Below are positions 12,557-64,000 of a DNA stretch of 64,000 nt, one piece after another. Positions within the stretch are counted from its first letter, which is position 1. Every line of letters starts with the position of its first letter. Position numbers and translations under genes: made by a program. Source of the DNA: an uncultured Phycisphaeraceae bacterium. Lineage in GTDB: Bacteria; Planctomycetota; B15-G4; JADJEK01. The DNA is taken from contig CAZYQW010000029.1 of assembly GCA_964649825.1 (NCBI GenBank), positions 69,735 through 133,734 on the forward strand, read 5' to 3'. The notes below the pieces were generated by a model. It saw nothing but the letters and a program-made list of their open reading frames with translations. It was not told the DNA's origin and ran no database searches.

Positions 12557-12967
12557 ATGATCGAGCTGCGTACGCTTCACCTCATCGTTGGAACGGTCGG
12601 CCTGATCGCCTTCCTGCTGACCGGACAGCACATGCACTGGGTCCATCATCATCTGCAGGGGATGCACGATGGGCCGCGCCTGTTCTTTCGCTCGGCTCAC
12701 ATCTACCTCCTCTGGTCGTCGCTGCTGAACGTGCTGGTCGGCTGCTATCTTGCGCGACTCACGTCGAGGCTCGCTCGGCACGTGCAGCTCCTGGCCTCGC
12801 TGGCGATCCTGGCCGGGCCGCTCCTTCTCTGTGTGTCGTTCTTCCATGAACCGTACAACGCGGGTCTCTTGCGCCCCGTCGGGCGGGCGGCCGTCGTGCT
12901 GGCCACGGCCGGCGTCTTGGCTCATGCCGGCGCGGCGATCACGGGGCAGGGCGCAACCAGCCGATAG
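12557..12967 (+). CDS. Small integral membrane protein (hypothetical).
   Basis: MIELRTLHLIVGTVGLIAFLLTGQHMHWVHHH...LWSSLLNVLVGCYLA...LLASLAILAGPLLLCVSFF gives 3-4 predicted TM helices. It is divergent from the large secreted protein gene. Confidence 0.45.
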   Translation: MIELRTLHLIVGTVGLIAFLLTGQHMHWVHHHLQGMHDGPRLFFRSAHIYLLWSSLLNVLVGCYLARLTSRLARHVQLLASLAILAGPLLLCVSFFHEPYNAGLLRPVGRAAVVLATAGVLAHAGAAITGQGATSR

Positions 12968-12981
12968 AGATCGCGAGGTCG

Positions 12982-14640: not shown

Positions 14641-14706
14641 GGCGCTTCCTCCGTTGGATGGACGTTCCGGACGATATCACGGTTCCCGTCGCGCCGGACG
14701 ATCGAG

Positions 14707-43891: not shown

Positions 43892-44921
43892 CGAGCGAGA
43901 TGTGGTGAATGGTCCCGAGGCGGCGCCAGGCCTCGGCAGATCCGAAGCCACCGGCCCGGTCAGCAGCGGCCTTCATCGACTTGCAGCCTTCACAATGCGC
44001 CGGACCAAAGAAGCTGGATCGCAGATGTCCATACACGAGCTTGGTCGCAAGTGCGGGAAACTGCACCCCCGGCCGCGTGACGCGGGTGCTCTCCCCCTTG
44101 ATGAGGAGCCAATCATCCGGCATTGCGTACCGGATCGAAGCCGACATCTGCATGATCCGAGGGTCAAAGCCCTCGACACCCGTGGGGTACTGAATAGCGC
44201 AGTCGCTGAAGGTGGGGAGCCGCGCAAGGCGACCCCGTGCTTTATGGAGGCGGTCGCGCCAGGCGATCCACTCCACTCGCTCGACAAGGTTGTCAGAGTT
44301 GCGGGCAACGCCGCCCCTCATGGGGAAGGCGCACGCGGAGATGGTGAAGGTCCGCCACCGCCGGTGATCAGGAACGTCGGATAGGAACGCTGCCGTCAAG
44401 GCGGCAACGCCGTCCACGATCATCTCGTCGACCGCACCCAAGTCGACGATCAAATCCGTTCCTTCCGGCGCGAGCCCGTGTTTCGCCATGAACGCTTGGA
44501 GGCTCCCGGTGAGGTTCCCGCTCTCGAACTCCTCGCGGGTGAGCCTCAGCGCGATCCCATGACGTTGATGCGCAAGGGCTGCGGCCAGGTCGGCGGTCCG
44601 CGAAATCCCGGTGACCGGCGTGAAGACGATGCCGGCCGAGTTCGCCCGTCGGAAGACCTCGAGGGCGGCCGCCGGACCGTCAGAGGCGATCTCGCGGGCA
44701 TCGAGGAAGCACCTCGCATAGGAGATGACGCTGCCCGCGAGACCCTTGAATGCGTTGTCGAGGTGGGCAGCGACCGTCGCGGCCTTGTCGGCCTTTCGTT
44801 CGACGACTTCCAAGAGGGGCGTGATGCGCGCCCGAAGGGGTTGCAGGACCGAGCCGAGAGCACTCTTCTCGCCGCGTTTCACCTTCAGCACCGGAACGTA
44901 GTGGTGGTCGCCGAAGGTCAT
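43854..44921 (-). CDS. sce7725-like protein (355 aa), partner of the sce7726-like gene.
   Basis: GGAGG lies 8 nt before the ATG. MTFGDHHYVPVLKVKRGEKSALGS...CEGCKSMKAAADRAGGFGS. It overlaps the PIN gene stop by 4 nt. Confidence 0.65.
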   Translation of the reverse strand: MTFGDHHYVPVLKVKRGEKSALGSVLQPLRARITPLLEVVERKADKAATVAAHLDNAFKGLAGSVISYARCFLDAREIASDGPAAALEVFRRANSAGIVFTPVTGISRTADLAAALAHQRHGIALRLTREEFESGNLTGSLQAFMAKHGLAPEGTDLIVDLGAVDEMIVDGVAALTAAFLSDVPDHRRWRTFTISACAFPMRGGVARNSDNLVERVEWIAWRDRLHKARGRLARLPTFSDCAIQYPTGVEGFDPRIMQMSASIRYAMPDDWLLIKGESTRVTRPGVQFPALATKLVYGHLRSSFFGPAHCEGCKSMKAAADRAGGFGSAEAWRRLGTIHHISLVIQEGLATLPWP

Positions 44922-48719: not shown

Positions 48720-50033
48720 GTGATCCATCCCTCTCTCGCATGGCTCGTGTGCAGCGTCGTCACCTTGAATGAAGGCGACGGCGATCCCGTGGTCTGGCTC
48801 TCCGAGCACGCCGGCGCGATCCGCACGATCGACCCGAGCGATGACGACTTCTCGGACCTCGAGTGCATCGCGGAGGCGATCGGAGACGCGCGCATCGTCT
48901 GGCTCGGCGAGCCGTCGCACGGCGACGGCGCCGCCTTCCGGGCGAAGGACCGCCTCGTTCGATTCCTCCACCGCCGTCACGGCTTCTCCACGCTGCTCTG
49001 GGAGTCGGGGTTCTTCGACTGCGCGGTGATGCAGGAGAAGCTGCACGAGGAGGGGCGCACGGACGCCGCGGCGAGCTGGGGCGTCTTCTCGATCTGGGGA
49101 GCGAGCCACCAGACGCTCCCCGTGTTCCAGTACGCGCGATCGACCTACGGCTCGGAGGATCCGCTCGTGATGGCCGGCATCGACTGCCAGTTCTCCGGGC
49201 GAGGGTCGGAGGGGATCAAGGACTTCGTCCTGCGCTTCTTCGACGAGGCGGGGAAGGACACGCTCTCCGCGGAGCTTCGCGCCGGCCTCGAGCGCGCGAA
49301 CCGGCATCTGTTCTTGTCGCCGTTCTTTCCGGCCGAGTCGCAGCTCGAGAAGGCGACGGCGGTGCTCGATGAGATCGCGGAAGGGACGAAGGACCCCGAT
49401 TCGCCGCTCACCAAGGTCCACTCCGAGCGTGAGCTCTCGTTCCTGCGGCAGACCCTGAAGTGCTACGCCGCTCAGCTCACGCTGAGGCTGCGCCTGCGCG
49501 ACGAGGCGACGCGCGCGACCGCGAGCAACCTGCGCGAGCGCATGATGGCCGAGAACCTGCTTTGGCATCTCGAGCACGCGAAGCCGGACGCGCGCTTCAT
49601 CGTGTGGGGCGCGGGCATCCACGGCGCAACGAACCTCGCCGAGGTCGAGCCGATCGACGAAGCGACGTCGTTCGCCGGGTTCGAGCCCGCCGGCAACATC
49701 CTGCGCGAACGGTTCGGCGACCGCTACTACTCGATCCTCTTCACCGCCCACCACGGCCACGCCGCCGTCGTCATGGCCGAGGCGAAGCCGATTCCGAACG
49801 CGCCCGAAGGTTCGTTCGAGACACTCTGCCGAAGCACCGGGAACGCGTTCACGTTCGTGGACCTCCGAGCCGCACGGCGGGAGGGTGGCGAGTGGCTCCG
49901 GGAACCGCGAGTGGCCAGACCACTCGGCTACGTCGACGTGACCGCCGCGTGGCCGCGCATCTGCGACGCGTTGTTCGTCATCGAGGAGATGACGCCGAGC
50001 ACGTTGCCGCCGGATGATGCGGCGGGGGAATGA
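48720..50033 (+). CDS. Erythromycin-esterase-family (Ere-like) protein.
   Basis: IVWLGEPSHGDG and RERMMAENLLWHLE resemble the Ere family. A GTG start is predicted at 48720. The protein is about 437 aa. Confidence 0.6.
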   Translation: MIHPSLAWLVCSVVTLNEGDGDPVVWLSEHAGAIRTIDPSDDDFSDLECIAEAIGDARIVWLGEPSHGDGAAFRAKDRLVRFLHRRHGFSTLLWESGFFDCAVMQEKLHEEGRTDAAASWGVFSIWGASHQTLPVFQYARSTYGSEDPLVMAGIDCQFSGRGSEGIKDFVLRFFDEAGKDTLSAELRAGLERANRHLFLSPFFPAESQLEKATAVLDEIAEGTKDPDSPLTKVHSERELSFLRQTLKCYAAQLTLRLRLRDEATRATASNLRERMMAENLLWHLEHAKPDARFIVWGAGIHGATNLAEVEPIDEATSFAGFEPAGNILRERFGDRYYSILFTAHHGHAAVVMAEAKPIPNAPEGSFETLCRSTGNAFTFVDLRAARREGGEWLREPRVARPLGYVDVTAAWPRICDALFVIEEMTPSTLPPDDAAGE

Positions 50034-50097
50034 GGGCGCGGGGCGGGCGGGTCGAGCTTGCCGCTTCCATCCATGTCGAGGCATCGAGGACGATTCA

Positions 50098-50880
50098 TCA
50101 ATCACTCGGCAACAGTCGCAGCATCCGCTGCTCCACCAACACCCGGAAGTGACTCGCCATGCTCAAGGCGAGCGGGCGGTCGCGGACCAGCACCCCCACC
50201 TCGATGTTCCGATCGAACGCGGCCTCGGTGAGGTTCGCAGAGGTCACGAAGACTGCCTCGTCGTCGGCCACGACCGCCTTGGCGTGGAGGACGCCGGAGG
50301 GGCGCTCGGGGTCGAGGGCGCGCGGGTCGTAGAAGACCGTGGGCCGCGCCTGGCCGGGCCAATCCTCCTTCCAGAGACGATCGGCGAAGCTCCGCACGAG
50401 CTGGTCGGCGGGCGCGGGATCGCCGCGCTTGCGCTGGATGTTCAGCAGGAGGGTCACGCGGAGGCCGGGGCACGCGTCCATGCGGCGGGCGAGGAGTTGG
50501 AAGGCCCGGGGGCCGTCGAAGTAGGCGTACGTGCTGATCCAAAGCGACCGGGTGGCCCCCGCGAGGAGCTGGTCGAACGCGTCGCGGGTCCGGCGGACGT
50601 GGAGGCCGGGGACCTCGGGGCCGGACCAGACCAGGTCCGGCCGGATCTGCTTCGCGGTGACCGCTTCCACGGTCCGGAGCCAGGCGGCAGCGCCGCGCCC
50701 GGACACGCCGATGCGATCCAGGTCGCGAAGGCCGGTGGCGATCGCCTCGATGCCGTCCTCCAGGCCCACGGTGGCGCGCAGCGACGCGGCGGCGTAGGGC
50801 GGACCCAAGAGCCCGCTGTCGAGGGCCGCGGCGAGGCGCTGGCGCTGGTGGGATGGCAGGTCGAGGAGGGGCTCGATCAT
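50098..50880 (-). CDS. drmC: Phospholipase-D-family nuclease, DISARM DrmC-like.
   Basis: The HKD motif is HAKAVVADDEAVFVTSANLT. The 260-aa protein overlaps the drmB stop by 4 nt. Confidence 0.8.
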   Translation of the reverse strand: MIEPLLDLPSHQRQRLAAALDSGLLGPPYAAASLRATVGLEDGIEAIATGLRDLDRIGVSGRGAAAWLRTVEAVTAKQIRPDLVWSGPEVPGLHVRRTRDAFDQLLAGATRSLWISTYAYFDGPRAFQLLARRMDACPGLRVTLLLNIQRKRGDPAPADQLVRSFADRLWKEDWPGQARPTVFYDPRALDPERPSGVLHAKAVVADDEAVFVTSANLTEAAFDRNIEVGVLVRDRPLALSMASHFRVLVEQRMLRLLPSD

Positions 50881-52679
50881 TCCACGAGCCGGAAGAAGGC
50901 CGCGTCGGGCTCACCGAGAACAGGCACGACGAGGGCGCGGTCGAGGTAGTCGTTGCGCATCTCGCATGAGGTCTCGGCGACCAGGGTGCAGCCGTGGCAA
51001 GCGGCGCCGTGCAGGAAGCGCTTCTCCAGGCTCGAGGCCGGGGAGTGCTGGGCGCACACCGGGTCGTTGGAGCAGAGCGCCGCCATGCGGAGCGCGTTCG
51101 CGAGGTGATCTTCGATGTGGCGGCCCTGCTGGACGAGTCCGCCGAGCGTCCCCTCCGCGTCGGGGGTACCGGTGTACAGGAGCACGCCGTAGCGCTCACC
51201 GTCGGGGTCGGAGTACACACGCTCGCGGATGGAGCTCGCCGGGTAGCCACAGCGCATCGCGAGCGACTGGATGAGGAGATGGGACAGGGTGTGGAGGAGG
51301 ACGTAGGGCCCCCCGGGAAACGACCGCTTGCCCCGGCCTCTCCCATCGTCCTGCCACCGCTTGTACCCCGCGGCCAGGTCGTCGACGCGGGCCTTCACAA
51401 CGGGCCGCGCGAGCCACGCCGCGATCATCTCGGCGCGCAGATGAAGAAACACACCCTCCCCGCGGTTCTCGACCGCCGGGAACCAGGTGGGCTCCTCGTC
51501 GAGCTCGGCCCGCACGACGTCGGTGTCGTACTCGCCGTTGATGTCGGGCGTGACGGCCTCGAACCGCGTGAATCCAACCAGGGCGAGGACCTCGCGGAGG
51601 CGGTGGAGCTGGACGACGCTCTGGACGCCCGCGAAGCGATCCGACTTGTGCCAGACCGATTCGGGCAGCCGGCGGGCGTGGAAGTTGAGGTCGATGGGGA
51701 CGTCATCCCCGAAGCCCTCGAGCGCGGTGAGCAGCGCGTCCAACTCCACCTGCTTGACCGGCCGTTCCTCTACCACTCCCGCCTTCATCTCGCTGATGAT
51801 CTGCAGGACCTCGCGATCTCCGTATGGCGCGAGCTTCTCGGCGACGCGGGGCTTCCTCTTCACGGTCGCCAGGTCGCCCGCGTCCTCGACGATCTGCAGG
51901 TCGTCCCAGAGCTCGGTGAACACGGCGCGCGCCTTCGCGCCCTGGTCCGGCAGCGACAGCACGCTCACGACCTGGGGGAAGTATGCGTTGGCGGCGGTCC
52001 GGATGAGAAGCCGGCTCGGCAGGGAGCACTCCTCGCTCGCACCGCGCCCCAGCCACGGCATCGCCCCGCTGCATGTCCCCAGCGCTTCGCTCTCGGAGGC
52101 CTCGTAGAGGCTTCGCGGCGCCACCTCTTTGCACTCGCAGCGGATCGAGAGGTCCGCGAGATCGCCGGTCGTCCCCGTCTCGTCGAGCCAGAGCTGCAGG
52201 CGACATGTCGAGTCGGGTCCGTGAAGGAAGCGGTGCCATTGGATGTCATCGACGTGGCCACGCGGGCACGCGCGGACGAACCGCGTGGCCACGACCCGGA
52301 GATTCTCGAATCGCCCGTGGTCGAGCAGCTTGCGATGGACGAGCCGCCGCGACCGCGCGCTCCGGTCGCCCTCCGGCGGGGGCTCCTGGACCACGTACCA
52401 TTCGGGGAAGCGATACGCGCTGATGCCTCTTCGCCGGTGATCCGACCAGTCGTCCGATTCGATCGGCGGCGCGAACATTCGCGGATCGTCCACGTCCGTC
52501 ATCATCTGGAGCTTGCGCTCGAGCCGGGGCTCGACGACGGGCTCGAGTTCGCTGGTCGGCCCCCACGTCCGGAGACCGCCGAGGATCGCGGAGTCCTTCG
52601 GCAAATCGATCAACGCCCCAGGCCCGTAGGTCAGGATCACCTGGCTGCGCCGGAGCTGTCCGTGCGCTTTTCGTCTCAT
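50877..52679 (-). CDS. drmB: DUF1998-domain protein, DISARM DrmB-like.
   Basis: The 600-aa protein carries the C-terminal Cys motif typical of DUF1998/MrfB (SNDPVCAQH...HGAACHGCTLVAETSCEMRN). It overlaps the drmA stop by 4 nt. Confidence 0.8.
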   Translation of the reverse strand: MRRKAHGQLRRSQVILTYGPGALIDLPKDSAILGGLRTWGPTSELEPVVEPRLERKLQMMTDVDDPRMFAPPIESDDWSDHRRRGISAYRFPEWYVVQEPPPEGDRSARSRRLVHRKLLDHGRFENLRVVATRFVRACPRGHVDDIQWHRFLHGPDSTCRLQLWLDETGTTGDLADLSIRCECKEVAPRSLYEASESEALGTCSGAMPWLGRGASEECSLPSRLLIRTAANAYFPQVVSVLSLPDQGAKARAVFTELWDDLQIVEDAGDLATVKRKPRVAEKLAPYGDREVLQIISEMKAGVVEERPVKQVELDALLTALEGFGDDVPIDLNFHARRLPESVWHKSDRFAGVQSVVQLHRLREVLALVGFTRFEAVTPDINGEYDTDVVRAELDEEPTWFPAVENRGEGVFLHLRAEMIAAWLARPVVKARVDDLAAGYKRWQDDGRGRGKRSFPGGPYVLLHTLSHLLIQSLAMRCGYPASSIRERVYSDPDGERYGVLLYTGTPDAEGTLGGLVQQGRHIEDHLANALRMAALCSNDPVCAQHSPASSLEKRFLHGAACHGCTLVAETSCEMRNDYLDRALVVPVLGEPDAAFFRLVE

Positions 52680-55600
52680 GCCGAGTCTCCCGCCTCCGCC
52701 CCGTTGAGCTCCCTCAGGAACAGGTTCACCTCGGGCTCTACGTCGCGAAGCGACCGGTTCGCGCGGAACTTCCGGTGGTCCTCGGACTTGTCGGTGTCCA
52801 GCATTTCCCGAAGCAGAGGCCGCGGCCCGCGCACTTCGTACTTCTGGTACTGCATCCGGGCACCGACCTCACGCGACTCCGCTACAACTCGCGCCCAGGA
52901 ATCGAGGAGGTCCGTGACGCGCTGTTGTACGCTCAGCGCCCGCTCCGCCCGCTCCTGCTCGTCCATGCGCGGCTGCCCGGCGACACGGCGCAGGAAGGTG
53001 TCTCGCAACTCCGACTCGAGCCCGGCGCGGACATCGTCGATCCCTCCGACCGCTTCGGCGGGCGTCAGCTCCCGGCGCGCGTGGCGGGCGAGCGCCACCA
53101 ACGCCCCGGCGAAGCCCCGATCGAGGGCCCGCGCCGAGAACGGGGTGACGCTGGCCGGCTCCACCGCGCGATAGAACGTCTCGTGGTAGTGTCGAAAGCG
53201 CTCGTAGTGCGACCGGTCGCGCGGCTTGTGCATGTTGAGCAGCGTCACCACGAGGCCTGGCCGCTGGTCGTCGCGACCGACGCGGCTGGTCGCCTGGATG
53301 TACTCCGCGTGCGTCTTGGGCTGGCCGAGCACGACCATCAGCCCCAGCCGGGGGATGTCGAGGCCGACCGAGATCATGTTCGTGGCGATCGCGAAGTCGA
53401 CCCGCCGCTCTTCGTGGAACTCGCAGCTCAGGCGCTGCTTCGCTTCGGAGACCCCGCTGGTGGGGACGCGCGAGGTCAACTCCATGACCTCGGAGACTCG
53501 CTTGCGATCCTGGAATAGCCCTCGGTCCTCCCCCGCGCGCCGGCGGTTGCCGTAGCCCTTCAGGGTGTTCTGGACCTCCTCCTCGAGGATGCGGCGGCAG
53601 CCGCCGAGCTCGCGTAGGCTGTTGAAGTACCCGAGCACCGTCATGTACGGATCGGCGGGGTTCTTCTCGTTGCGGTGGCCGCCCGCGTCGCGGTACGCCC
53701 GCTCCGCCGCACCCATCAGGGCCAGCCAAACGCGGCGGAGGATCACCTTCGGATTGCGACCCTGCGAGGCCACGCCGAGGTACAGGCGGGCGGCTTTCCG
53801 CTCGACGCCCACCTCCGCCGCCGCCTGCGCGTCGGATGGGACGACCCGAGCGAAGAACGAGTCCCTTCGGTCGGGCCCGGGTGGCGGGAAGACCATGGTC
53901 TGGGGACGCCCGAAGACGGCCTGGATCTGCTCTGCGGCCTGGCGGACGGTGGCCGTCGACGCCACGATCTTCGGCTTGATCGCCTTGCCATCGACCTCGC
54001 GCACGATGAGGGCCTCGATCACCGTCTCGTACAGGCCGGCCATCGTGCCGAGCGGCCCCGAGATGAGGTGCAGCTCGTCCTGGATGATCAGGTCGGGCGG
54101 CGGCAGCGGGGCAGGGAGCCTGGAACCCTGGCCGGGCTCGGCATTGCCGTAGAAGCCGTGCTTGTCGTGCCGCTCGGCACCGCCGAGAAGCGCACCCGAC
54201 GGGCCGACCCAGGGCAGCGACGCGAACTTGTCCACGGTGGCGATGAGGAATGCCGGCAGCCGCCGGTAGATCGGCTCATCGACGGCGAGGATGGGGAGCG
54301 GGCGCTCGCGGGAGAAGTCGCATTCGAAGTTGACGCACACGATGCGCAGCTCGCGCGGCCGGTCGGCGTCCGGCTGCAAGTCGAACGAGTCCGGCTCGAA
54401 CCTGGTGCCGCACCACGGGCAGGTCTCGATGGGGATCGGGGACGGGTTCGCGTGCGGGTCGCGCTTGTAGTCGCGCACCTTGATCCGGGCGGTGTCCGAG
54501 ACCTTGTCGCCCTTGTGACCCATCCGGTTGGGCGTCGCCGCCTTGCCCACCCACAGCCCGATCTCGAAGGGCCACGTCCCGTAGCGCCCGGGATCCGCGC
54601 TCCGCTCGAGTTCCAGCGCGCACACCAGCCCCGCAGCCCGGCCGAGCTGATCGAGCGTGAGGAGGCGGAGGGTGTAGCGCATGAGGACGCTCACGCCCGC
54701 GCTCTGGAGCCCCGCGTTCCGCAGCCGGCGCAGGACCATCGTGTAGGCGGCGAGTCCGAGGTACGCCTCGGTCTTGCCGCCGCCGGTCGGGAAGAACAGC
54801 AGGTCGACCGTGTCGCGGTGTTTGCTCGGGTCGGTCGGATCCGCGATGCCGGACACGTTGAGGAGCACGAAGGCGAGCTGGAACGCGCGCCAGGCGGGTG
54901 CGTCGTCCCGCGACCGCCGCTGGAGAGCGCGGGCCACGGCGCGGTTCGCGACCCGAAACGCGTCCAAGGCGCTCGGGTCGGCGCGCAGGGTCTCGATGCC
55001 CTGGTCGATGCGGTCGGCGGCGGCGCGCGCGAGAACGAGGAGCCCCTCCACGGTCTCTCGCCGGGAATCGCCGAGCCTCCCCAGCACGCCCCGCTGCGCC
55101 GCGATCCAGGCGCGGTAGTGCACCACCAGCGGCCGAAGCGCCTGCGCTGCCGCCTCACCGTCGGCCAGGGCCCCGAGCTCGAGCATCCCGAGCGTCGCCC
55201 CTTCGATCTTCGATGTCTCGGTCCGCTCCACCTCGGCGTTCGGCACCCATGCGGTGCGCAGCTCGCGGCAGCGGCCATCCACCACCGACCACTCCGCGGA
55301 CACGCCGTGCCCCGCCGCGTACTCCGGCGCGTCGGCGTAGTGGACGTCGGCGACGCGCTCGTCCCAGTCGCGCGCCCGCGAGCCACGCGGATCCGGCCGG
55401 GGCACGAACGACTCCTCGCAGCGAACCCTGAGGCTCGCCTGGAACGCGTAGGCGCGGTCGGGGTTGTCGGTGTCGGGCGCGCGCCGGTTGATCAGGAAGA
55501 CCGAGATCGAGCGCGTTCCCGGGGGAATCTCGTTCGCGAACTCCCGCGCGTCGACGGCGCGATCGACGACGTGGAGCTGGAGGCCGCCGGAGCTCGGGAC

Positions 55601-56137
55601 ATCCAGGACGCACGGCTCGCGGCTCCCGCTGCCAAGGCGGACCCGGACGGGCTCCTCGCGGGCGTCCCGCTGCCACACGGACAGCGGCTTCCCGTCCTTG
55701 TCGGCCATCTCGCCGCGGTCGTAGTCCCCCCACCCGACGACGACGTCCAGGGCGGAGCACGCCGCCGGGACGAGGAAGCTCAAGCCCATGGACGACGGGA
55801 AGTAGCTCTTCTTCGCCGCGCGGCGTTCGTCCGCGCTCTCCTCCTCCAGACCGGCGTGCTCGGGCACGACGTCGAGGTCGTCGTCCTCATCCTGGTCGCC
55901 GGCCAGCTCGGGCGGCGTTCCCGTGGGGATGAGGAAACCCGTCAGGTACCAGTTGGACGGCCGCTCCCAGCCGCGCAGGCGCTCCTCCGCGTACGCATGA
56001 CCGGCCCAGGGACCCACCAGGTCGAGCTCGAGAGCTTCGACGAGGCGCGCTCGGATCGCCTCGGAGTCGACCGCGGTCGAGACCTCCCCGCCGTGCCCGT
56101 CCGTCACCGCATCGCTCCGTTCATCGGCACTCATCAT
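52676..56137 (-). CDS. drmA: Large SF2 helicase, DISARM DrmA-like.
   Basis: Walker A is FFPTGGGKTEAYL. DELH reads IIQDELHLISGP and motif VI reads QATSRVGR. The start ATGATG at 56137 overlaps the last 17 nt of darG. The track's longer ORF start at 56233 is less likely. Confidence 0.8.
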   Translation of the reverse strand: MMSADERSDAVTDGHGGEVSTAVDSEAIRARLVEALELDLVGPWAGHAYAEERLRGWERPSNWYLTGFLIPTGTPPELAGDQDEDDDLDVVPEHAGLEEESADERRAAKKSYFPSSMGLSFLVPAACSALDVVVGWGDYDRGEMADKDGKPLSVWQRDAREEPVRVRLGSGSREPCVLDVPSSGGLQLHVVDRAVDAREFANEIPPGTRSISVFLINRRAPDTDNPDRAYAFQASLRVRCEESFVPRPDPRGSRARDWDERVADVHYADAPEYAAGHGVSAEWSVVDGRCRELRTAWVPNAEVERTETSKIEGATLGMLELGALADGEAAAQALRPLVVHYRAWIAAQRGVLGRLGDSRRETVEGLLVLARAAADRIDQGIETLRADPSALDAFRVANRAVARALQRRSRDDAPAWRAFQLAFVLLNVSGIADPTDPSKHRDTVDLLFFPTGGGKTEAYLGLAAYTMVLRRLRNAGLQSAGVSVLMRYTLRLLTLDQLGRAAGLVCALELERSADPGRYGTWPFEIGLWVGKAATPNRMGHKGDKVSDTARIKVRDYKRDPHANPSPIPIETCPWCGTRFEPDSFDLQPDADRPRELRIVCVNFECDFSRERPLPILAVDEPIYRRLPAFLIATVDKFASLPWVGPSGALLGGAERHDKHGFYGNAEPGQGSRLPAPLPPPDLIIQDELHLISGPLGTMAGLYETVIEALIVREVDGKAIKPKIVASTATVRQAAEQIQAVFGRPQTMVFPPPGPDRRDSFFARVVPSDAQAAAEVGVERKAARLYLGVASQGRNPKVILRRVWLALMGAAERAYRDAGGHRNEKNPADPYMTVLGYFNSLRELGGCRRILEEEVQNTLKGYGNRRRAGEDRGLFQDRKRVSEVMELTSRVPTSGVSEAKQRLSCEFHEERRVDFAIATNMISVGLDIPRLGLMVVLGQPKTHAEYIQATSRVGRDDQRPGLVVTLLNMHKPRDRSHYERFRHYHETFYRAVEPASVTPFSARALDRGFAGALVALARHARRELTPAEAVGGIDDVRAGLESELRDTFLRRVAGQPRMDEQERAERALSVQQRVTDLLDSWARVVAESREVGARMQYQKYEVRGPRPLLREMLDTDKSEDHRKFRANRSLRDVEPEVNLFLRELNGAEAGDSA

Positions 56138-57191
56138 CCCCGCGCCCACCCGGAGCACCGAGCCAGCCTCGGCGCGCGAGGGTCTCGCGAGCGATGCCGA
56201 TCTGACGGGGAGTGAAGCGCTTCTTGCGCTCATCCCAGGCGTGCGTGCACGCGATCAACTCGCTCTCGGAGGTCACCCCATCGCGGACCACCACCCAGTG
56301 CACGGTCGCGAGCAACTCGAGGCCCGAGGGCGTCTCGAAACCCTCGACCAGCGCCGCGACCCGATCGAACCGGGCCTGCGTCTCCGGTGCAGCCGCCAAC
56401 ACCGCGCGAGCCTGTTCCACGGCCCCCGGCATGAGCTCCAGCACCTTGTCCGGAGCGTCGCCGCCGTCGCCGTAACCGGTCACGTAGTGGCCCTCGATCT
56501 CCCGCAGCACGTGGCGGAGGTTCTCGACGTATGGGCCGTAGTAACCCTTCTTCACGCGCAGACGGAGGTTCTCGCCCGCCTCCTGCATGAAGTACATGAG
56601 CTTGTGGATCTCCAGGAGCGACGCGAAGGGATCGAGCAGCCCAGCGGTGTAGCGGTCGATCAGGCCGATGAGCGCGGCCCGCCCCGCGGTCATCGGCGGC
56701 GCCGCGGCGCCACGGTTCGGCGTCGCCCGCGGTCGCGCCGGCGACGGCTCGAAGATCGTCACGCGCACCTCGGCCAGGTCGCGCAGCGCCTGCTCGATGC
56801 GCGCCCGCACCTGGCCCCACTCCAGGCCACCCAGACCCGCGCCGAGGGGAGGAATGGCCACCGAGCGGATCCCTCGCTGCTCGATCTCGGCGACCAGCGC
56901 CGCCAGGCCCGCGTCGATGTCCTCCATGCGCGACTTGCCGCGCCAGTGCCGCTTGGTCGGGAAGTTGATGATGAAGCGCGGGGGCGTCAGGCGCCCGGTC
57001 TCGAAGACGAACATGCGGCCCGGCTGGACCTCGCCGCGGCGGCACGCGGCGGCGTAGGCGCGGAAGTTGTCGGGCCAGGCCTTCTTGAACTGCAGCGCGA
57101 TGCCACGCCCCATGAACCCGACGCAGTTGACGGTGTTCACGAGCGCTTCCGCGTCCTCCGCGAGGAGATCGCCGGTCTTGAACTCGATCAT
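56121..57191 (-). CDS. darG: DarG antitoxin (macro-domain ADP-ribosyl hydrolase plus C-terminal DarT-binding domain).
   Basis: The internal start is MIEFKTGDLLAEDAEALVNTVNCVGFMGRGIALQFKKAWPDNFRAY, a macro domain with GIA and LGAGLGG elements. It lies 14 nt downstream of darT. The protein is 356 aa. Confidence 0.8.
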   Translation of the reverse strand: MIEFKTGDLLAEDAEALVNTVNCVGFMGRGIALQFKKAWPDNFRAYAAACRRGEVQPGRMFVFETGRLTPPRFIINFPTKRHWRGKSRMEDIDAGLAALVAEIEQRGIRSVAIPPLGAGLGGLEWGQVRARIEQALRDLAEVRVTIFEPSPARPRATPNRGAAAPPMTAGRAALIGLIDRYTAGLLDPFASLLEIHKLMYFMQEAGENLRLRVKKGYYGPYVENLRHVLREIEGHYVTGYGDGGDAPDKVLELMPGAVEQARAVLAAAPETQARFDRVAALVEGFETPSGLELLATVHWVVVRDGVTSESELIACTHAWDERKKRFTPRQIGIARETLARRGWLGAPGGRGDDECR

Positions 57192-57205
57192 CGCGGCTCC
57201 TCGGT

Positions 57206-57856
57206 TCAGAAGTACCAGGACCTCTTGACCGCCGTCGCCGTCGAACGGCTCGCTTGGGCCAGAGCGCTCTCGACTCGATGTCGAATGCCGTCGGATGGTA
57301 CTCCGATGCCTTCGACGAGATCCAACGGGAATCGCCCTTCGAGCAGGAACTCGGCCTGCTTGCCCTCCTTGATGTCTGGTGCTCGAAAGTCGGCCGCCGC
57401 GATCGCCGCCCAGTTCAGTTCGTCGAGATCGCTCCAGCGATTCCGGAACTCCGTGGCGTAGGCACCGGCGTTCGCGAGCGAGAAGCACCAGCGCACGCGG
57501 TGCTCCTCGGCCCAGCGTACGACTTGGGCCAGGTCCGCGTGCAGATGGAGAATCGACTCCTGCCCGCCGCGATAGGTCAGCTCGGCGTGGTTCCCCCGGT
57601 GCAGGAGGTAGAGCATGATCGACCGGGGACAGAAGTAGAACGGGACGTAGTCGCCGACCGTCGTTCCGTCATGACAAGGCACGTGGATCCTGTGCAGGCG
57701 GCGCTGCTTGATGTCCGTCATGCCGATCGGCTGCGCCGGACCGCTGCGCGCGATCATCGCGCGATCGGACAGGAGCGCGCCCTCCGCGAGGATCGCGGGC
57801 AGGTTGTCCACGTGAGTGATGTGGTACACCTTCGGCCGATCGGGCGGTGCGCTCAA
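57206..57856 (-). CDS. darT: DarT toxin (DUF4433 ssDNA thymidine ADP-ribosyltransferase).
   Basis: KVYHITHVDNLPAILAEGALLSD matches the DarT N-terminal NAD-binding motif. A TTG start at 57856 follows GGGGAGG plus 8 nt, and an alternative GTG lies at 57829. The TTG overlaps the TGA of the upstream MTase by 2 nt. Confidence 0.75.
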   Translation of the reverse strand: MSAPPDRPKVYHITHVDNLPAILAEGALLSDRAMIARSGPAQPIGMTDIKQRRLHRIHVPCHDGTTVGDYVPFYFCPRSIMLYLLHRGNHAELTYRGGQESILHLHADLAQVVRWAEEHRVRWCFSLANAGAYATEFRNRWSDLDELNWAAIAAADFRAPDIKEGKQAEFLLEGRFPLDLVEGIGVPSDGIRHRVESALAQASRSTATAVKRSWYF

Positions 57857-60800
57857 TCGAACAGCCTCCCCTGCGGTGACGCGGCCGCGCCCTTCTTCGA
57901 GCGCCCCTGACCTGCGCCGGCGCGCGCCTCCTCCTTGGCACGCTCGGCGTTCAGCTCGAGGAGCCGGGCGAGGACCTCGTCGCGGACGTCGTCGGGCCAG
58001 CGGTAGCGCCAGGGCTTCTTGCGGCTGCCCCACTCCTCCTCGTCGACCTCGTAGTCGAGGAGGAACTCGCACTCGGTCGGGATGTCGTCCCAGCCGTACG
58101 CGCGCAGGACCGCGCGATCCATGGCGGCGTGGAGCTCGCGGAGCCGGAGGATGTCCGGGTCGCGCTCCTCCGGGTCGTGGAAGCGGTTGTAGGTCTTCGT
58201 AAGGCCAGCGTCGTTGCGGACCATGAGAGCGGCGCGGAAGTCGTGGTACTCCTGGCCGGCGGCCTCGAGGTCAGGGTGTTCGGTCCAGTTGGCCGGGAAG
58301 GGGTAGGTCTGAAAGACAGCCGTCGGGTTGTATGTAAGGTCATCCGCCACACCACGGGTCGTCCCGAAGAATGAACTCCACACCTCGTGCGCGCGACACT
58401 GCAATGCCGCAATCGACGAGTGGCTTTCGAATGGAAACACGATGAGCTTGTGAGAGAAGACCTGACCCGAGGGTACACAACCAATGACGTGGTGAGCGAC
58501 AGCTGCAGCTCCAGTGACAAGCACCCGGTCCAGCCCGGCGATGGCGGCGTAGAGCTCCGGCCGAAGTCTCTCGAACTGCCACCAGCGCGCTGTTGAGTGG
58601 CTGCCGCGCGTTCCGTGCACGCGCTTCTCGACGATCGCCATCAGCTCCGGCCACTGCCGCCGGCATTCCTCCTCGGACCGCTCGCCGAAGTTGATGACGT
58701 ACCGGTGGTGCGCATGCGTCGGGCTCGAGTTCACCTCCTCGCCACCGATGTAGGGCAAGATCACGTCCCGGTTGCGCGGGTTCTTGGCCAGCAGACGCTC
58801 CATGTCGGCGAGACTGGAAGCGACGCCCTTCGTGTCCGTGTCGTCGAAGGTGAAACCCATGCCAAGGACGATGCTTCCCTGGAAGCTCCGCCCCGCATTC
58901 GACGACAGGCGAGCGGGATCCTCGTGGCCGCCGCGATGGAACAGAAACGCGGTGATCTGCTCGACCTCCCGCCCGTCGAGATGCCTGGATCCGGCCCACT
59001 CGTCGCGCGCGACATGCACCACGCTGACGACGACCGCGGCCTGCCCCGGCCACCTGACCCGGCGATCGGCGCGGTAGACCTGGCCTGCGTGCCGGCAGAT
59101 CCAGCGCAGCCCGGTCGAACGCGTGTCGCCCTGCCTGATGGTGTTGGTGGCGATCAGGCCGAACGCGCCACCGCGCCGCAGCAGATCGAACGCGCGCCGG
59201 AAGAAGTGCGCAACCAGGTCGGCGTTGCCGTGGCTCTCGGCGTGAAGAGCCTTCAGCCACTCCGGGTATCCGGGCACGTTGGAGGCCGCGACGGTGTTCT
59301 TGTAGGCGAACGGAGGATTGCCGACGATCGCGTCGAACCCCGGATTCTCCCGTCCGGACACCTCCGGGAACTCCACCTCCCAGTGGAACGGCGCGAGCGG
59401 CGGATCCTCGGTCCGACGTTCCAGGAGGCGGCCCGTATGGTCCTCCGCTGAGCCATCGCTGATCGCGTGCACGAAGTCCCGTCGCCTGTCCTCGCGCGCC
59501 TTCGGCTTGTCCCCCGCGAAGAACGCGTCGACGAGCAAATCGCCGTACAGCCGCACCCGTGCGAGCTCGGCCTGGGCCTCGTCCCAGATGTCGCGGAGCA
59601 CGAAGTCCGACACGCCCTCGCCGGCCTCGCGGATCTCGCGGCGCAACGCCGCCGCCCGCTCCAGGTGTCCGCGGATCCGCTCACGCAGCCTGCTCTCGAA
59701 CTCGAGGCTGTCGTCCCAGTGGAAGATCTCGATCTGCCGTCGCGACATCCCGACCAGCGAGTCGCCGTGCCGCAGCGCGTGATCCACGAACGTGAGCGGG
59801 TGGTCCTTCGCCAGCGTCGCGAGCCAGAGCGAGACCTTCGCCAGGTCGACCGCGACGGGGTTGCGGTCGACGCCGTAGAGGCACCGCTGCGCGACCAGAC
59901 GCATCGCATGGACCCGTTCGTCCTCGTCGGCGGGAATCGGCGGGGTCTGGCGATAGAAGTTCCAGCTCTCGACCAGAGCCTCGCCGAGCTGGCGGCACGC
60001 CTCGACCAGGAACGCGCCCGACCCCATCGCCGGGTCGCACACCTTCAGGTCGAGGATCTGCCCGGGGCGTGGGGGCCGGTCGTCGCTGCCACGCAGCCGC
60101 TGGAGAATCGGCTCCAGGGTCCGGCGGACGATCGGCTCGGTCAACGACCGCGGCGTGTAGTGCGAGCCGGAGCGCCGGCGAGCCTCGCTCGGCTGGAGGA
60201 CCATCGCTCCGCTCGGCACCAGGTCCGGCGTCGCCGCGGGGTCGATTACCGGCTGCAGCGCGGCGTGGAGCTCCTCCAGCGTCGACGCGTCCTTCACTGC
60301 CTGCTTGACCCGATCGGTGAGCTTGCGATCGGCGCGGTCCCGGATCCACTTGTCGCGCTTGGCCGCGTCCACGTTCAGGAGGGCGTCGAGGTCGATCGCG
60401 GTCGGCGCGCCGTGCTTCTTGTGGGCCTTCACCGCCACCGCGCGCCCGCTGGCGGTCTCCATGCGGAAGCCCATCATGGTCTCGTAGACCGAGCCGATCT
60501 GCTCGACGTCGAGCGCGCGGTAGGAGAGCCGCTCGCCGTCGAGGACCAGCAGTTTCTCCAGGGCGCGGTGAATGGTGCCGTCGGGCACGAGCGGCACGTC
60601 GACGCCCTCGTGGATCTGCCGCGCGCTACCCGTGGTACGCCCTTCGAGGAACGGGAAGCGGTCGGGGTCGAAGAGCACACCGTGGCGAGCGGGCAGGCGC
60701 ATGCCGCCGGCCTCGGCGCCGTCATGGATCATCCGGAAGAGCACCAGGAGCTGCGCCCACGCGCCGAATCGCTGGTCCATCGTGTCGGGGTAGCGCGACG

Positions 60801-61785
60801 CGTCGGAGCGCAGGCGCTCGTAGAGGCCCGCGAGCGAGTAGTGCCGGAGGAACGCCTCGTCCTTCGGCAGCATGTCGCGCTCCTCGGCGTAGAGCAGGAA
60901 CACGAGGCGCAGGATGACGGTGAGGAGCCCGCGGTAGACCTCGTCCGGATGCTCGCGGAGCACGTCGGCGAGAAGCTCGCCCCGGGTGGCGTCCTGCGCG
61001 GCCTGGAGGCCCCGGAGCAGTTCGTACAGCGCCTGCAGCACCTGCTCGGCGAGGCGCTCGCTGACCTCGTTCTGGTACTTACGGCTATCCTCGAGCAGGG
61101 CGGTGAGCCGCTTGTCCTTCGGCAGGGACAGCAGCCGCGGCTCGCTCAGCAACAGCCGCAGCGCGGCGCAGATCGGCCGGCCAGCGGTCTGGACCAGCTC
61201 CCCCGCGCGGAAGTCGAGCCAGCCCGAGGTCTCCCTCCGCGGCGCCGACACGAGCCGCACCGCGTGCCCGTTGAACAGGAGGCCGGCGAGCACGCCGTGC
61301 TTGCGCAGCATCCGCTCCATGCGGCTGTGCGGCGACGCATCGAGCCGCGACCCCGGCACGGGGTCGTCGAACCCCTGGTCGGGATCGATCACCGAGACCA
61401 GGAGCTGCCACGCGGGTTGGCCCGCGGCTGGTAACAGCTCACGGACCGCGAAGTCGGGGGCGAGGGTCTCCTCGAAGTCCTCGAGGTACACGAGGAGCTC
61501 GGGCGGCACTGGGGCCTCGGCCGTACCCGCGTAGCCCTTGGGCGAGAAGCTCCAGCCGAGGACGTGCCGCACGAAGCGTTCGAACTCCACGAACAACCGC
61601 GGAGTGCCGCGGTCGCCGTCCCAGCCGGGGACGCAGTCGCGGACTCGCCGCTGGGTCTTCATGTCGTTGCGGTCGAGAATGGCTCCGGCGCGGACCAACG
61701 CGGTCGGCGACACGACGAGGCCGGTCGGCTGGACGAAACCGAGCCACTCGACGTGGGCGAGGACGTTCGGATCGGGCCGGGCCAT
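57853..61785 (-). CDS. drmMI: N6-adenine DNA methyltransferase of 1,310 aa (Eco57I/PglX-like), DISARM DrmMI-like.
   Basis: The true start is the internal MARPDPNVLAHVEW at 61785. The first ~380 codons of the track ORF are GC-rich junk that overlaps the SNF2 gene. Motif I is VCDPAMGSGAFLVEA and motif IV is IVGNPPFAYK. The TGATG arrangement overlaps the SNF2 stop. Confidence 0.8.
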   Translation of the reverse strand: MARPDPNVLAHVEWLGFVQPTGLVVSPTALVRAGAILDRNDMKTQRRVRDCVPGWDGDRGTPRLFVEFERFVRHVLGWSFSPKGYAGTAEAPVPPELLVYLEDFEETLAPDFAVRELLPAAGQPAWQLLVSVIDPDQGFDDPVPGSRLDASPHSRMERMLRKHGVLAGLLFNGHAVRLVSAPRRETSGWLDFRAGELVQTAGRPICAALRLLLSEPRLLSLPKDKRLTALLEDSRKYQNEVSERLAEQVLQALYELLRGLQAAQDATRGELLADVLREHPDEVYRGLLTVILRLVFLLYAEERDMLPKDEAFLRHYSLAGLYERLRSDASRYPDTMDQRFGAWAQLLVLFRMIHDGAEAGGMRLPARHGVLFDPDRFPFLEGRTTGSARQIHEGVDVPLVPDGTIHRALEKLLVLDGERLSYRALDVEQIGSVYETMMGFRMETASGRAVAVKAHKKHGAPTAIDLDALLNVDAAKRDKWIRDRADRKLTDRVKQAVKDASTLEELHAALQPVIDPAATPDLVPSGAMVLQPSEARRRSGSHYTPRSLTEPIVRRTLEPILQRLRGSDDRPPRPGQILDLKVCDPAMGSGAFLVEACRQLGEALVESWNFYRQTPPIPADEDERVHAMRLVAQRCLYGVDRNPVAVDLAKVSLWLATLAKDHPLTFVDHALRHGDSLVGMSRRQIEIFHWDDSLEFESRLRERIRGHLERAAALRREIREAGEGVSDFVLRDIWDEAQAELARVRLYGDLLVDAFFAGDKPKAREDRRRDFVHAISDGSAEDHTGRLLERRTEDPPLAPFHWEVEFPEVSGRENPGFDAIVGNPPFAYKNTVAASNVPGYPEWLKALHAESHGNADLVAHFFRRAFDLLRRGGAFGLIATNTIRQGDTRSTGLRWICRHAGQVYRADRRVRWPGQAAVVVSVVHVARDEWAGSRHLDGREVEQITAFLFHRGGHEDPARLSSNAGRSFQGSIVLGMGFTFDDTDTKGVASSLADMERLLAKNPRNRDVILPYIGGEEVNSSPTHAHHRYVINFGERSEEECRRQWPELMAIVEKRVHGTRGSHSTARWWQFERLRPELYAAIAGLDRVLVTGAAAVAHHVIGCVPSGQVFSHKLIVFPFESHSSIAALQCRAHEVWSSFFGTTRGVADDLTYNPTAVFQTYPFPANWTEHPDLEAAGQEYHDFRAALMVRNDAGLTKTYNRFHDPEERDPDILRLRELHAAMDRAVLRAYGWDDIPTECEFLLDYEVDEEEWGSRKKPWRYRWPDDVRDEVLARLLELNAERAKEEARAGAGQGRSKKGAAASPQGRLFD

Positions 61786-64000
61786 CAATTCGACTCCGGC
61801 CAGAGGTAGACCAGACCCACCGGCTCCACGCGGGTCGCGCGGACCTCGTAGAACTCCCGAATCCGATCGGGCTCGCCGGCCAGGTCGCGGTCGAACTGCT
61901 CGAGCCGCACCTTCCACCAACGCGCGTCCGCCTCGAGTTGGCGCCGGGCGTCCGCGAGCTGGCGCTTGCGCTCCTCCAGCTCCTGCTTCGCCGCTTCGCG
62001 CTCGGCTTGCTCCTCGGCGAAGAGCGACGCCTGGCCGAGCTTGCGCTCCTCCTCCGCAATCCGCCGCTCCTCCTCGTGCTCCTTGCGGCCGTACTTGCCG
62101 AGCTCCTCCTCGACCCGCTTGCGCTGGCGCTCCAGCGTTTCCCGCAGGTCGCGGGCCTCGCGCTCGCCCCGCGTCCGCAGTCGGTCCGCCGCCGTGGCCG
62201 CGACCTCGTCCGCCCGCGGCTGGAGCTGGGGCAGGAGTTCCTCGACGTCGCGGGTCGCGGCCTCCAGGAGCCGCGCCTGGATGGTCTTGTTTGGCGCACG
62301 ACCCGCGGTGGCTCCGGCGAGGGCCACCTCGAGCAGCTCGAGCGTCTTCACCTCCGCGTCCCGTGCGTAGGCCTTGAGCGGTCCGCCGCGCTTCGCCGGC
62401 TCGAGCCAGCGCGCGGTGACCGGGATGACCTCCTCGTGGAGCCGCTCCGCGCCCCGGCCGTAGAGCGAGAGTCGGCCGAGGAGGATGACGCGGGGGATGG
62501 AGTCGGTGGCCTGCGCAAGGCAGGCGCGCGACAGGTCGTGGTGGACGAAGCCCTGGGTGCGGAACCGGGCGAGCAGGCGCTGGGCGACCCGCTGCTCGAG
62601 GTGGAGGTGCACCGTGTCCTCGGTGAGGATGCCTTCGTCCTCGAACACGATCGGACGAATCGGCGACTCGCGTCGCCAGTCGGCGAGCTTCTGTCCGGTG
62701 CGGCGCGGTGCGCGCAAGGTGTCGACGGTTGCGGCCCAGCTCGCGTCGAGGCCGACCTTGCGGTCGAGCGGCGGGAACGACCAGACCGGCCGGCCGTCCG
62801 CGTCCTTCTCCTCCACCAGGGGCTTCGCGCCGAGCAGCTCCAGCGAGCACGAGAGGGCGTTGCGAAACGGCGCGGCCTCGAAGCCCACCCACCGGCGCGA
62901 GTTCTGCAACAGCCCGCGGCACCGCTCGATCTGCGCCGCGAGGTCGTCCTGCCGATCGCGGGCGCCCTCCAGCTCCTCCTCGGCGATGCGCTTCTGCTCG
63001 GCGTCGAGATCGGCCGCCTCGATCGCCGCCGCGAGACGCTCGGCGTCGCGGTGGCGGATGCCGCCCCGCATCAGCCGTTCGACGTCGTCATCGATCACCT
63101 TGGAGAGGCTGCCGAGCTCCGCCTTGATGGTCTCGGTCTTGCGCACCAGCACCTCGAGGACGTGGTCCTCGATCCGCTGCGGAAGCACGAAGTAGTGGCA
63201 GCGGACCTCGTCGGCGGGCTGCAGCTTGCGGTCGATGCGGCCGTTCCGCTGCTCGATGCGGCCGGGGTTCCAGGGCAGGTCGAAGTGGAACAGATCGGTG
63301 CAGTGGGCCTGGAAGTTGAGGCCCTCGCGGGCTGCGTCGGTGGCGAGGAGGATGCGCAGGGGTTCCTTCGACGGGTCGGCGTTGAAGCGGCGCTGGATCT
63401 CGCGCCGGTTCTTGCCGGCGGTGAGGCCATCGATGACCGCGATGCGCTCGTCGGCCAGTTCGGTCCCTTCGATGGCTTGCTCCAGCATCTGCTTGAGGTA
63501 GCGCTTGGTGCCCTCGCGGTTCTCGGTGAAGACCAGGACGCGCCGGTCGGTCCACGTCGCCGGCGCGCCGCGCGCCGCCTCGCCGAACGGCGGCAGGCCG
63601 GGACACTGCTGCTCGCGGATCCAGTCGATCAGCCGGCGGAGCTTGGCGTCGGGGACGTGGCGGGACTGGTCGGCGATCTGCTCCATCCGGTCGAGCAGCT
63701 CCTGCTCCGTCCTCCAGATCGCTTGCTCGCCCGGTCCACGCCGGGCGCCGCGCTCGGCCGCTGCCGTCACCGCCTCGACTTCGCTCGCGTCCTCCGCGTC
63801 GAGCTGCTCGGCGGTCCACTCGCTCCGTTCGTCGTCGGCGTCCGGTGCGTGGGTCAGGAGTTCGCCGCCGCCGTCGGTCGTCCCGCCCACTTCGTCAGCG
63901 AGCGCGGAGGTGGCGACAGAGTTCTGCCACTGCTTCTCCGCCGTCTTCCGGTGCACCTTGAGGGTGCGCCAGAAGGCCTCGATGGAGGAGAGCAGCCGTT
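61785..64000 (-). CDS. drmD: SNF2-family helicase (DISARM DrmD-like). The 5' end lies beyond the window.
   Basis: A helicase C-terminal domain is present (RVLVFTENREGTKRYL...ILLATDAAREGLNFQ...FDLPWNPGRIEQRNGRIDR). A long coiled-coil C-terminal tail follows. The minus-strand frame is open through position 64000, and the track's 'M' at 63956 is GTG. Confidence 0.75.
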   Translation of the reverse strand, partial: RLLSSIEAFWRTLKVHRKTAEKQWQNSVATSALADEVGGTTDGGGELLTHAPDADDERSEWTAEQLDAEDASEVEAVTAAAERGARRGPGEQAIWRTEQELLDRMEQIADQSRHVPDAKLRRLIDWIREQQCPGLPPFGEAARGAPATWTDRRVLVFTENREGTKRYLKQMLEQAIEGTELADERIAVIDGLTAGKNRREIQRRFNADPSKEPLRILLATDAAREGLNFQAHCTDLFHFDLPWNPGRIEQRNGRIDRKLQPADEVRCHYFVLPQRIEDHVLEVLVRKTETIKAELGSLSKVIDDDVERLMRGGIRHRDAERLAAAIEAADLDAEQKRIAEEELEGARDRQDDLAAQIERCRGLLQNSRRWVGFEAAPFRNALSCSLELLGAKPLVEEKDADGRPVWSFPPLDRKVGLDASWAATVDTLRAPRRTGQKLADWRRESPIRPIVFEDEGILTEDTVHLHLEQRVAQRLLARFRTQGFVHHDLSRACLAQATDSIPRVILLGRLSLYGRGAERLHEEVIPVTARWLEPAKRGGPLKAYARDAEVKTLELLEVALAGATAGRAPNKTIQARLLEAATRDVEELLPQLQPRADEVAATAADRLRTRGEREARDLRETLERQRKRVEEELGKYGRKEHEEERRIAEEERKLGQASLFAEEQAEREAAKQELEERKRQLADARRQLEADARWWKVRLEQFDRDLAGEPDRIREFYEVRATRVEPVGLVYLWPESN

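Follow-up and report, generated by a model that had tools for sequence, protein, structure and literature searches.

A DarTG2-type toxin-antitoxin pair predicted in a variable cargo slot of a class 1 DISARM operon with ordinary gene packing

Several defence operons are known to carry the genes of a second defence system. The PrrC anticodon nuclease is encoded in the EcoprrI type I restriction-modification (RM) locus and is held latent by protein-protein contact with EcoprrI, and BrxU/GmrSD enzymes are embedded in BREX operons. The toxin DarT ADP-ribosylates single-stranded DNA and blocks replication, and its partner DarG reverses the modification and sequesters DarT; DarTG systems expressed alone protect directly against phage. 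In enteropathogenic Escherichia coli (EPEC), DarTG2 is flanked by hsdS and hsdR, within an island of seven open reading frames (ORFs) with an active promoter upstream of the first gene, which is repressed by RptR (PMC12255303). Addiction has been put forward by Jankevicius et al. as an alternative explanation for the presence of DarTG in type I RM operons (PMC5179494). Homologues of ShdA are embedded in operons resembling DISARM (defence island system that is associated with restriction-modification) (PMC10270631). Here we analyse a DarTG pair inside a DISARM operon in a 64,000-nucleotide stretch of DNA from an uncultured Phycisphaeraceae bacterium (contig CAZYQW010000029.1, positions 69,735 to 133,734), which is referred to as the window.

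We interpret the region, with a probability of about 0.75, as a complete class 1 DISARM operon that carries a DarTG2-type abortive-infection module nested in a variable slot between drmMI and drmA, and that has the packing of an ordinary operon. The window has a G+C content of about 70%, and the DISARM and DarTG genes are all encoded on its minus strand. Pfam and PADLOC profile searches identified the gene order drmD, drmMI, darT, darG, drmA, drmB, and drmC, with the following features:

61785-64000, minus strand: 3' part of drmD, an SNF2-type helicase, which runs past the end of the window (PADLOC DrmD, 4.8e-131; Pfam Helicase_C).
57853-61785, minus strand: drmMI, an N6-adenine DNA methyltransferase of 1310 residues (PADLOC DrmMI, E = 0, 1293.6 bits; Pfam Eco57I, MmeI_Mtase, and N6_Mtase).
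57865-57871, minus strand: Shine-Dalgarno (SD) sequence GGGGAGG of darT (duplex energy with the anti-SD of -11.1 kcal/mol).
57206-57856, minus strand: darT, the toxin, with a TTG start (Pfam DarT, 8.5e-61; PADLOC DarT, 3.9e-64).
56121-57191, minus strand: darG, the macrodomain antitoxin of 356 residues, with an ATG start (PADLOC DarG, 3.5e-132; Pfam Macro, 2.1e-25).
52676-56158 at its longest, minus strand: drmA, the DISARM helicase, with an ambiguous start (GTG 56158, ATG 56137/56134, or GTG 56107; PADLOC DrmA, 1.8e-275; Pfam Helicase_C).
50877-52679, minus strand: drmB, a DUF1998/MZB protein of 600 residues (PADLOC DrmB, 3e-83; Pfam MZB).
50098-50880, minus strand: drmC, a phospholipase-D (PLD)-family nuclease of 260 residues (PADLOC DrmC, 4.7e-80; Pfam PLDc_2).

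The class 1 DISARM core, composed of drmA (helicase), drmB (DUF1998), and drmC (PLD), is encoded on one strand, and drmD (SNF2 helicase) and drmMI (adenine methylase) are positioned upstream of it. The five-gene composition, gene order, and domain content are those of the canonical class 1 DISARM of Serratia sp. SCBI; the class was reportedly defined by Ofir et al. in 2018. The operon differs from the canonical one in the two extra genes between drmMI and drmA, and no drmMII was seen in the window. The drmMI frame is open further upstream, as far as a GTG that would give a protein of 1689 residues. This start was rejected in favour of the ATG at 61785, since the profiles match from residue 389 onwards and 61785 is also where drmD ends; the longer frame is an artefact of the open upstream frame. 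The stop codon of drmD, TGA at 61787-61785, shares one base with the drmMI start (TGATG).

The two genes between drmMI and drmA encode DarT, with a full-length ADP-ribosyltransferase domain, and DarG. The Pfam family PF14487 (DarT, DUF4433 ADP-ribosyltransferase domain) is covered from position 1 to 201 of its 201 positions, and the Thermus DarT structure 7OMV matches residues 5-216 of the window protein at 2e-30. The catalytic glutamate is kept, in the segment KQAEFL, which aligns to KQAAFL in the crystallised 7OMV chain; that chain is reportedly the E160A mutant, E160 being the catalytic glutamate of Thermus DarT. The DarG macrodomain matches 5M31 (2e-53) and 5M3I (2.7e-51), and its catalytic-lysine motif FPTKRHW aligns to FPTKKHW, according to the pattern FPTK(K/R)HW. 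DarG residues 167-337 match the C-terminal DarT-binding domain of mycobacterial DarG (7YK3_B, 1.3e-26), and the alignment to the PADLOC DarG profile spans positions 1-327 of 329. The catalytic motifs of both proteins are shown by these alignments to be intact. Furthermore, darT is directly upstream of darG on the same strand, the spacer being 14 nt long in the window and between 15 and 32 nt in five relatives. By the profile identities and the motif matches of DarT and DarG, the class 1 DISARM operon is complete on its sequence, and the DarTG2-type pair that separates drmMI from drmA is intact. The original prediction, made without database searches, had already named the DISARM methylase, DarT, DarG, and DrmA, and the Pfam, PADLOC, and solved-structure sequence matches bear these names out. 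The tight packing of the genes, which it also described, holds as well, and the genes are probably co-transcribed.

The pair resembles the DarTG2 of type I RM operons, such as that of EPEC E2348/69 (hsdM-hsdS-darT-darG-hsdR, the RRDM island) and that of Thermus aquaticus. The toxin-antitoxin family is the same, with a macrodomain DarG bearing a C-terminal DarT-binding domain and with the DarT glutamate. In both settings, the pair is located downstream of methylase genes and upstream of an ATP-dependent motor or nuclease gene, on the same strand and tightly packed. The host operon differs, being class 1 DISARM (drmD, drmMI, drmA, drmB, drmC) here instead of hsdMSR. A regulator similar to the RptR of the EPEC island was not seen in the window, and the 5' end of the operon is located beyond it. 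Our literature search, mainly of titles and abstracts, found no description of DarTG inside DISARM. Like the ShdA homologues of DISARM-like operons, the pair is a case of one defence gene set placed inside another on the same strand. The window cargo is a two-gene toxin-antitoxin pair, which distinguishes it from both the ShdA and the BrxU/GmrSD embedded cargo.

The position between drmMI and drmA was surveyed in the 60 related loci that allowed placement of the drmMI end as well as the drmA start. The two genes are adjacent in 31 of them, and 0.4-8 kb of DNA separates them in the other 29. ORFs in this slot match GmrSD type IV restriction enzymes (four ORFs), DUF1016/YhcG PD-(D/E)XK nucleases (three), PIN domains, endonuclease/exonuclease/phosphatase proteins, Uma2, AAA_15/AAA_21 ATPases, and AbiEi. 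Additional matches are to a patatin-domain and a SMODS-domain ORF, both of CBASS-like families, an M78 peptidase with a helix-turn-helix, HD domains, and a large GNAT-PIN protein. The presence of GmrSD enzymes among the cargo parallels the BREX operons with GmrSD. The drmMI-drmA junction appears to be a general variable slot in which accessory defence genes accumulate in this DISARM family, and DarTG is one of many cargo types at this module boundary, since the ORFs in the slot match many defence families. The generality of the slot rests on the 60-locus survey, and such a slot is not described in the literature examined. It would be useful for annotation and for the mining of new defence genes.

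Some individual slots have complex contents. That of L165 (562-8001; related loci are given L numbers here) contains a ThsB-type TIR protein, a DEAD/ResIII helicase, and a Panacea-domain gene. The slot of L149 (8097-9947) holds a GmrSD enzyme. A GNAT-PIN protein of 744-776 residues is found in the slots of both L011 (6104-14102) and L106 (4648-10394), and L011 additionally contains PDC-M50A-like and HNH-like genes.

A DarG scan of species-representative genomes identified 80 loci with 61-71% identity to the window protein, from many phyla; the closest species-level DarG is 71% identical and comes from a Binatia metagenome-assembled genome (MAG). In five of those loci, the DarTG pair is located between drmMI and drmA of a class 1 DISARM operon, and the five MAGs are labelled Binatia, Gemmatimonadaceae, Eisenbacteria, Vicinamibacterales, and Latescibacterota. 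Two further loci of this kind come from metagenomes (L084 and L162), which gives eight loci from different phyla, including the window. All eight DISARM-embedded DarG proteins form one clade in a neighbour-joining tree. In the DrmA tree, seven of the eight loci fall into one subclade; L007, the DrmA of which is 51% identical to that of the window, was not placed. Both trees are simple distance trees without support values. The same DrmA subclade contains L149 with GmrSD in its slot, L082 with a remnant of DarG only, and L090 with no cargo. Because of the single DarG clade, the DrmA subclade, and the contents of L149, L082, and L090, the distribution fits one old acquisition of DarTG, which would have been inherited with a cassette moving between phyla and would later have decayed or been replaced. 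The remnant in L082 (1396-1509) is a 38-residue DarG fragment between drmMI and drmA, with 61% identity to query residues 46-83, and looks like a decayed DarTG.

This distribution also bears on the possibility that DarTG is chiefly a safeguard against loss of the DISARM locus or of its mobile carrier, and is not an anti-phage layer. Addiction of this kind is the alternative raised by Jankevicius et al. for type I RM operons, and it agrees with the sharing of the whole cassette between distant phyla at similar identities (68-71% for DarG and 67-69% for DrmA). However, DarTG alone gives direct phage protection according to the literature, and the pair has been decayed or replaced in L082, L149, and L090 without loss of DISARM. 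We consider addiction as the main role unlikely, and it would be compatible with a nested defence module.

At the junction of drmMI and darT, the methylase stop codon TGA (57855-57853) and the darT start codon TTG (57856-57854) overlap by 4 nt in the sequence TTGA. The GGGGAGG sequence at 57871-57865 is 8 nt upstream of the TTG, within the codons Q-G-R of the drmMI C-terminus (...SPQGRLFD*). Its predicted pairing with the anti-SD, at -11.1 kcal/mol, is the strongest in the operon. The TTG aligns with ATG or GTG starts of darT in L004, L005, L011, and L084, and the DarT proteins of the window and these four loci share the N-terminus xxxPPxxPK(I/V)YHITHV. The gene call on an identical public contig likewise selects the TTG. 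The original prediction was therefore right to place the darT start over the methylase stop and a strong SD inside the last methylase codons. The GTG at 57829, 27 nt downstream, which it had offered as an alternative, was rejected: it has no SD (pairing of -1.7 kcal/mol), and its use would remove the conserved N-terminal PPxxPK segment.

The TTGA at 57856-57853 has the start-on-stop arrangement of a termination-reinitiation pair, whereas for drmA this depends on the start that is used. Conservation of the overlap would be expected if it were functionally required, and the relatives do not retain it: L004 has a gap of 85 nt between drmMI and darT, and in L005 and L011 the two are separated by other genes. 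Because darT has its own strong SD, its translation need not depend on that of drmMI. The strength of this SD and the absence of an RNA structure that would sequester it argue against an obligate translational dependence. The drmMI ORF of L004 (4514-9124) encodes 1536 residues, and its C-terminus is about 225 residues longer than that of the 1310-residue window protein.

The start of drmA is less clear. The sequence ATGATG is present at 56137-56132, and the darG stop codon is at 56123-56121, so that the genes overlap by 17 nt if drmA starts there, as the original prediction had it. Other in-frame starts are GTG 56158, GTG 56149, and GTG 56107. The first of these, chosen by public gene calls, would create a 38-nt overlap with darG, whereas GTG 56107 is positioned 13 nt past the darG stop, with a GGAG sequence 7 nt before it. 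SD pairing is weak for every candidate (-5.8 to -6.4 kcal/mol). In 120 DrmA homologues, the N-terminal region before the DLVGP motif is not conserved, and the distance from the start to this motif ranges from 13 to 40 residues, with 26 the commonest value. The corresponding distances in the window are 28 residues from GTG 56107, 38 from ATG 56137, and 45 from GTG 56158, and GTG 56107 fits the homologue N-termini best among the three plausible starts. A start further upstream, ATG 56233, was rejected because it lacks an SD (+0.6 kcal/mol), its overlap with darG would be 113 nt, and it would give an N-terminus far longer than that of any homologue. Owing to the alternative starts, the weak SDs, and the N-terminal lengths of the homologues, a drmA start inside darG is possible, yet the start is not established. 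The ATGATG within the final 17 nt of darG is thus present as described, and its use as the start codon is one of three plausible choices.

Close packing is found throughout the operon. The drmD and drmMI genes overlap by 1 nt, drmMI and darT by 4 nt, and drmA and drmB as well as drmB and drmC by 4 nt each, and a 14-nt gap separates darT from darG; overlaps of 1 or 4 nt occur at four of the six junctions. In related loci, the drmA-drmB junction is a 4-nt overlap in 35 of 54 cases and the drmB-drmC junction in 19 of 33. Among 24 loci without cargo, 19 have the candidate drmA start that is nearest to the drmMI stop at -4 to +3 nt from it; one has this start at -17 nt, and the other four have it at +27 to +34 nt. 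Since overlaps of 4 nt and 1 nt are the commonest junction type in related operons, overlapping starts and stops are, in the loci compared, the default packing of these operons, and the geometry in the window is not beyond expectation. RNA folding of the drmMI/darT and darG/drmA junctions gave z-scores near 0, with no structured coupling element. A scan of positions 49500-64000 for promoters, by sigma-70 consensus only, found no promoter-like sites, and the same segment contains five terminator-like sites, compared with 4.3 expected, none of them at either junction. The scan is uninformative beyond the lack of evidence for internal signals.

According to the original prediction, this geometry makes the expression of toxin and antitoxin stoichiometrically dependent on the flanking restriction genes and could constitute a built-in sensor or fail-safe. 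In such a guard, DarTG would be tied to DISARM, and a phage that blocks the expression or the proteins of DISARM would upset the DarT:DarG balance and induce abortive infection. Stable co-inheritance of DarTG with one DISARM subclade is in keeping with this idea, as are the tight packing of both edges of the insert in the window, the repeated occurrence of DarTG relatives with a methylase gene on one side and a motor gene on the other in type I, type III, and DISARM systems, and the PrrC-EcoprrI precedent. Nevertheless, the comparison with relatives gives no support to a stoichiometric dependence. The sensor idea is weakened because the overlap of drmMI and darT is not kept in relatives, darT is served by a strong SD of its own, and the content of the slot is interchangeable, with sister loci holding unrelated cargo or nothing. 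Moreover, darT and darG are both downstream of drmMI, so that coupling would shift both together and not their ratio. The lack of a structured RNA element at the junction also speaks against a guard, which we regard as improbable, and we infer that the overlaps are not a dedicated stoichiometric sensor.

PrrC is, like DarT, a suicide effector encoded between restriction-modification genes, and it provides a precedent for a fail-safe that is activated when a phage inhibits the restriction enzyme. However, the control of PrrC is exerted by protein contact with EcoprrI and not by overlapping frames, whereas DarTG carries its own antitoxin, and there is no sign of protein contact between DarTG and DISARM in the data analysed here.

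As a nested module in an ordinary operon, the pair would be expressed as follows. The seven genes would be carried on one message. Translation of darT would be initiated from its own strong SD at a weak TTG start, and that of darG from a GAGGAG SD and an ATG 14 nt past the darT stop. The weak TTG of the toxin, compared with the ATG of the antitoxin, may keep the antitoxin in excess over the toxin; the relatives use ATG or GTG for darT. DarTG would then act as an independent second layer of defence, and DISARM would separately restrict unmethylated incoming DNA.

The spacing of darG and drmA varies: L004 has +13 nt, L005 has +22 nt, L084 has an overlap (-4 nt, ATGA), and 1.1-3 kb separate the two genes in L002 and L011. 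In two loci, the genes are fused. An ORF of 1563 residues in L007 (134-4825, plus strand) encodes DarG followed in frame by DrmA, and a search with this fusion found a 1494-residue DarG-DrmA ORF in L162 (267-4751, plus strand; P0206). The DrmA part of the L162 fusion belongs to the lineage of the window protein, and DarG passes through eight residues into a normal DrmA N-terminus, MTTQSE. One G fewer in a run of four would give a DarG stop codon TGA overlapping the drmA ATG (ATGA). Searches with both fusion proteins found these two singletons only, each being one sequence on one contig, and there is no protein longer than 502 residues among the best 150 DarG cluster representatives; a conserved fusion architecture was rejected on these grounds. 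The two ORFs may be real frameshift fusions or assembly errors.

The fusions raise the possibility of physical cooperation, in which DarG would be tethered to DrmA, or DrmAB would supply single-stranded DNA for DarT, and the pair would be a DISARM subunit in this subclade. The DrmA parts of the two fusions are only 51% identical to each other, and a fused DarG has been encountered twice, which hints weakly at a physical link between DarG and DrmA. The abutment of the two genes in most of the DarTG-bearing loci points the same way. DNA bearing a 5' overhang activates DrmAB (PMC9142583), and the substrate of DarT is single-stranded DNA. However, each fusion is a single occurrence, that of L162 is one base from an ordinary ATGA overlap, and the naming style of L007 suggests a long-read assembly, which is prone to indels. 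The intervening DNA in L002 and L011, the size limit of the DarG representatives, and the absence of DarG from most DISARM loci also argue against cooperation, which we regard as very unlikely. The original prediction had further suggested that darG may supply a function, such as the removal of ADP-ribose from DNA, that DISARM needs; since most DISARM loci are without DarG, a general need of this kind is unlikely.

Some points weigh against the interpretation of the pair as an independent module in an ordinary operon. That DarTG has lastingly been inherited together with one DISARM subclade, across phyla, could be due to a functional link and not to hitch-hiking. In addition, darG directly precedes drmA in six of the eight loci, two of these being the in-frame fusions. 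Finally, we infer transcription as a single unit, and only sigma-70 consensus sites were covered by the promoter scan. A small chance of a functional link between DarTG and DISARM is left by the co-inheritance and the two fusions. In one form of such wiring, which is comparably doubtful, DarG would contact DrmA, as the fusion ORFs hint, and phage interference with DrmAB would free DarT to ADP-ribosylate the single-stranded DNA exposed by the helicase, as in a PrrC-like guard. If true, it would explain why DarTG keeps appearing between the methylase and the motor genes in type I, type III, and DISARM systems alike. If co-inheritance and fusions reflect real cooperation, the operon would offer a tractable example of immunity in layers, in which abortive infection backs up restriction.

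Relatives of the pair recur with a methylase gene and a motor gene as neighbours in type I and, apparently, type III RM systems. In 35 non-DISARM loci, the largest ORF lying within 4.5 kb of DarTG was examined on each side. The flanking ORFs include 12 ResIII matches, six HsdM-type methylases, and six N6_N4 methylases alongside five proteins with a type III endonuclease domain; the type III family counts come from the pooled flanking-ORF survey, and some of the ORFs were scanned individually. In L008, the methylase ORF ends 5 nt before darT, and darG is followed by an ORF of 1015 residues. Such an order, mod-darT-darG-res, resembles that of a type III restriction system. An N6_N4 methylase ORF just upstream of darT and an ORF of about 1000 residues after darG are seen in L008 (7427-14187), L010, L013, L015, L033, L050, and L072, and L008, L010, L013, and L015 come from Pseudomonas, Ectopseudomonas, and Stutzerimonas. 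The nesting of DarTG in type I restriction operons was already known; the window adds class 1 DISARM to it, and type III systems are a further case suggested by the flanking-ORF survey. The main value of the locus is in the recurrent methylase-DarTG-motor order and in the DISARM cargo slot, the overlapping starts being ordinary packing.

Other ORFs of the minus strand were observed elsewhere in the window. A frame of 2830 residues at 8507-16999 has no Pfam or PADLOC match and may, in DNA of 70% G+C, be either a shadow ORF or the gene of an uncharacterised protein of very large size. Just downstream of drmC, the segment 47204-50105 contains ORFs of 488 residues, with no family match, and 563 residues, with a weak alpha/beta-hydrolase match. 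An ORF of 355 residues at 43854-44921 has a PADLOC PD-Lambda-2_C match (1e-26). In the segment 38317-41393, a superfamily 1 (SF1) helicase (AAA_11/AAA_12; PADLOC MkoA/DpdJ-like, 3e-54) overlaps or abuts a Cas4-like PD-(D/E)XK nuclease ORF at 40017-41393, and the two may be another defence gene pair of the same island.

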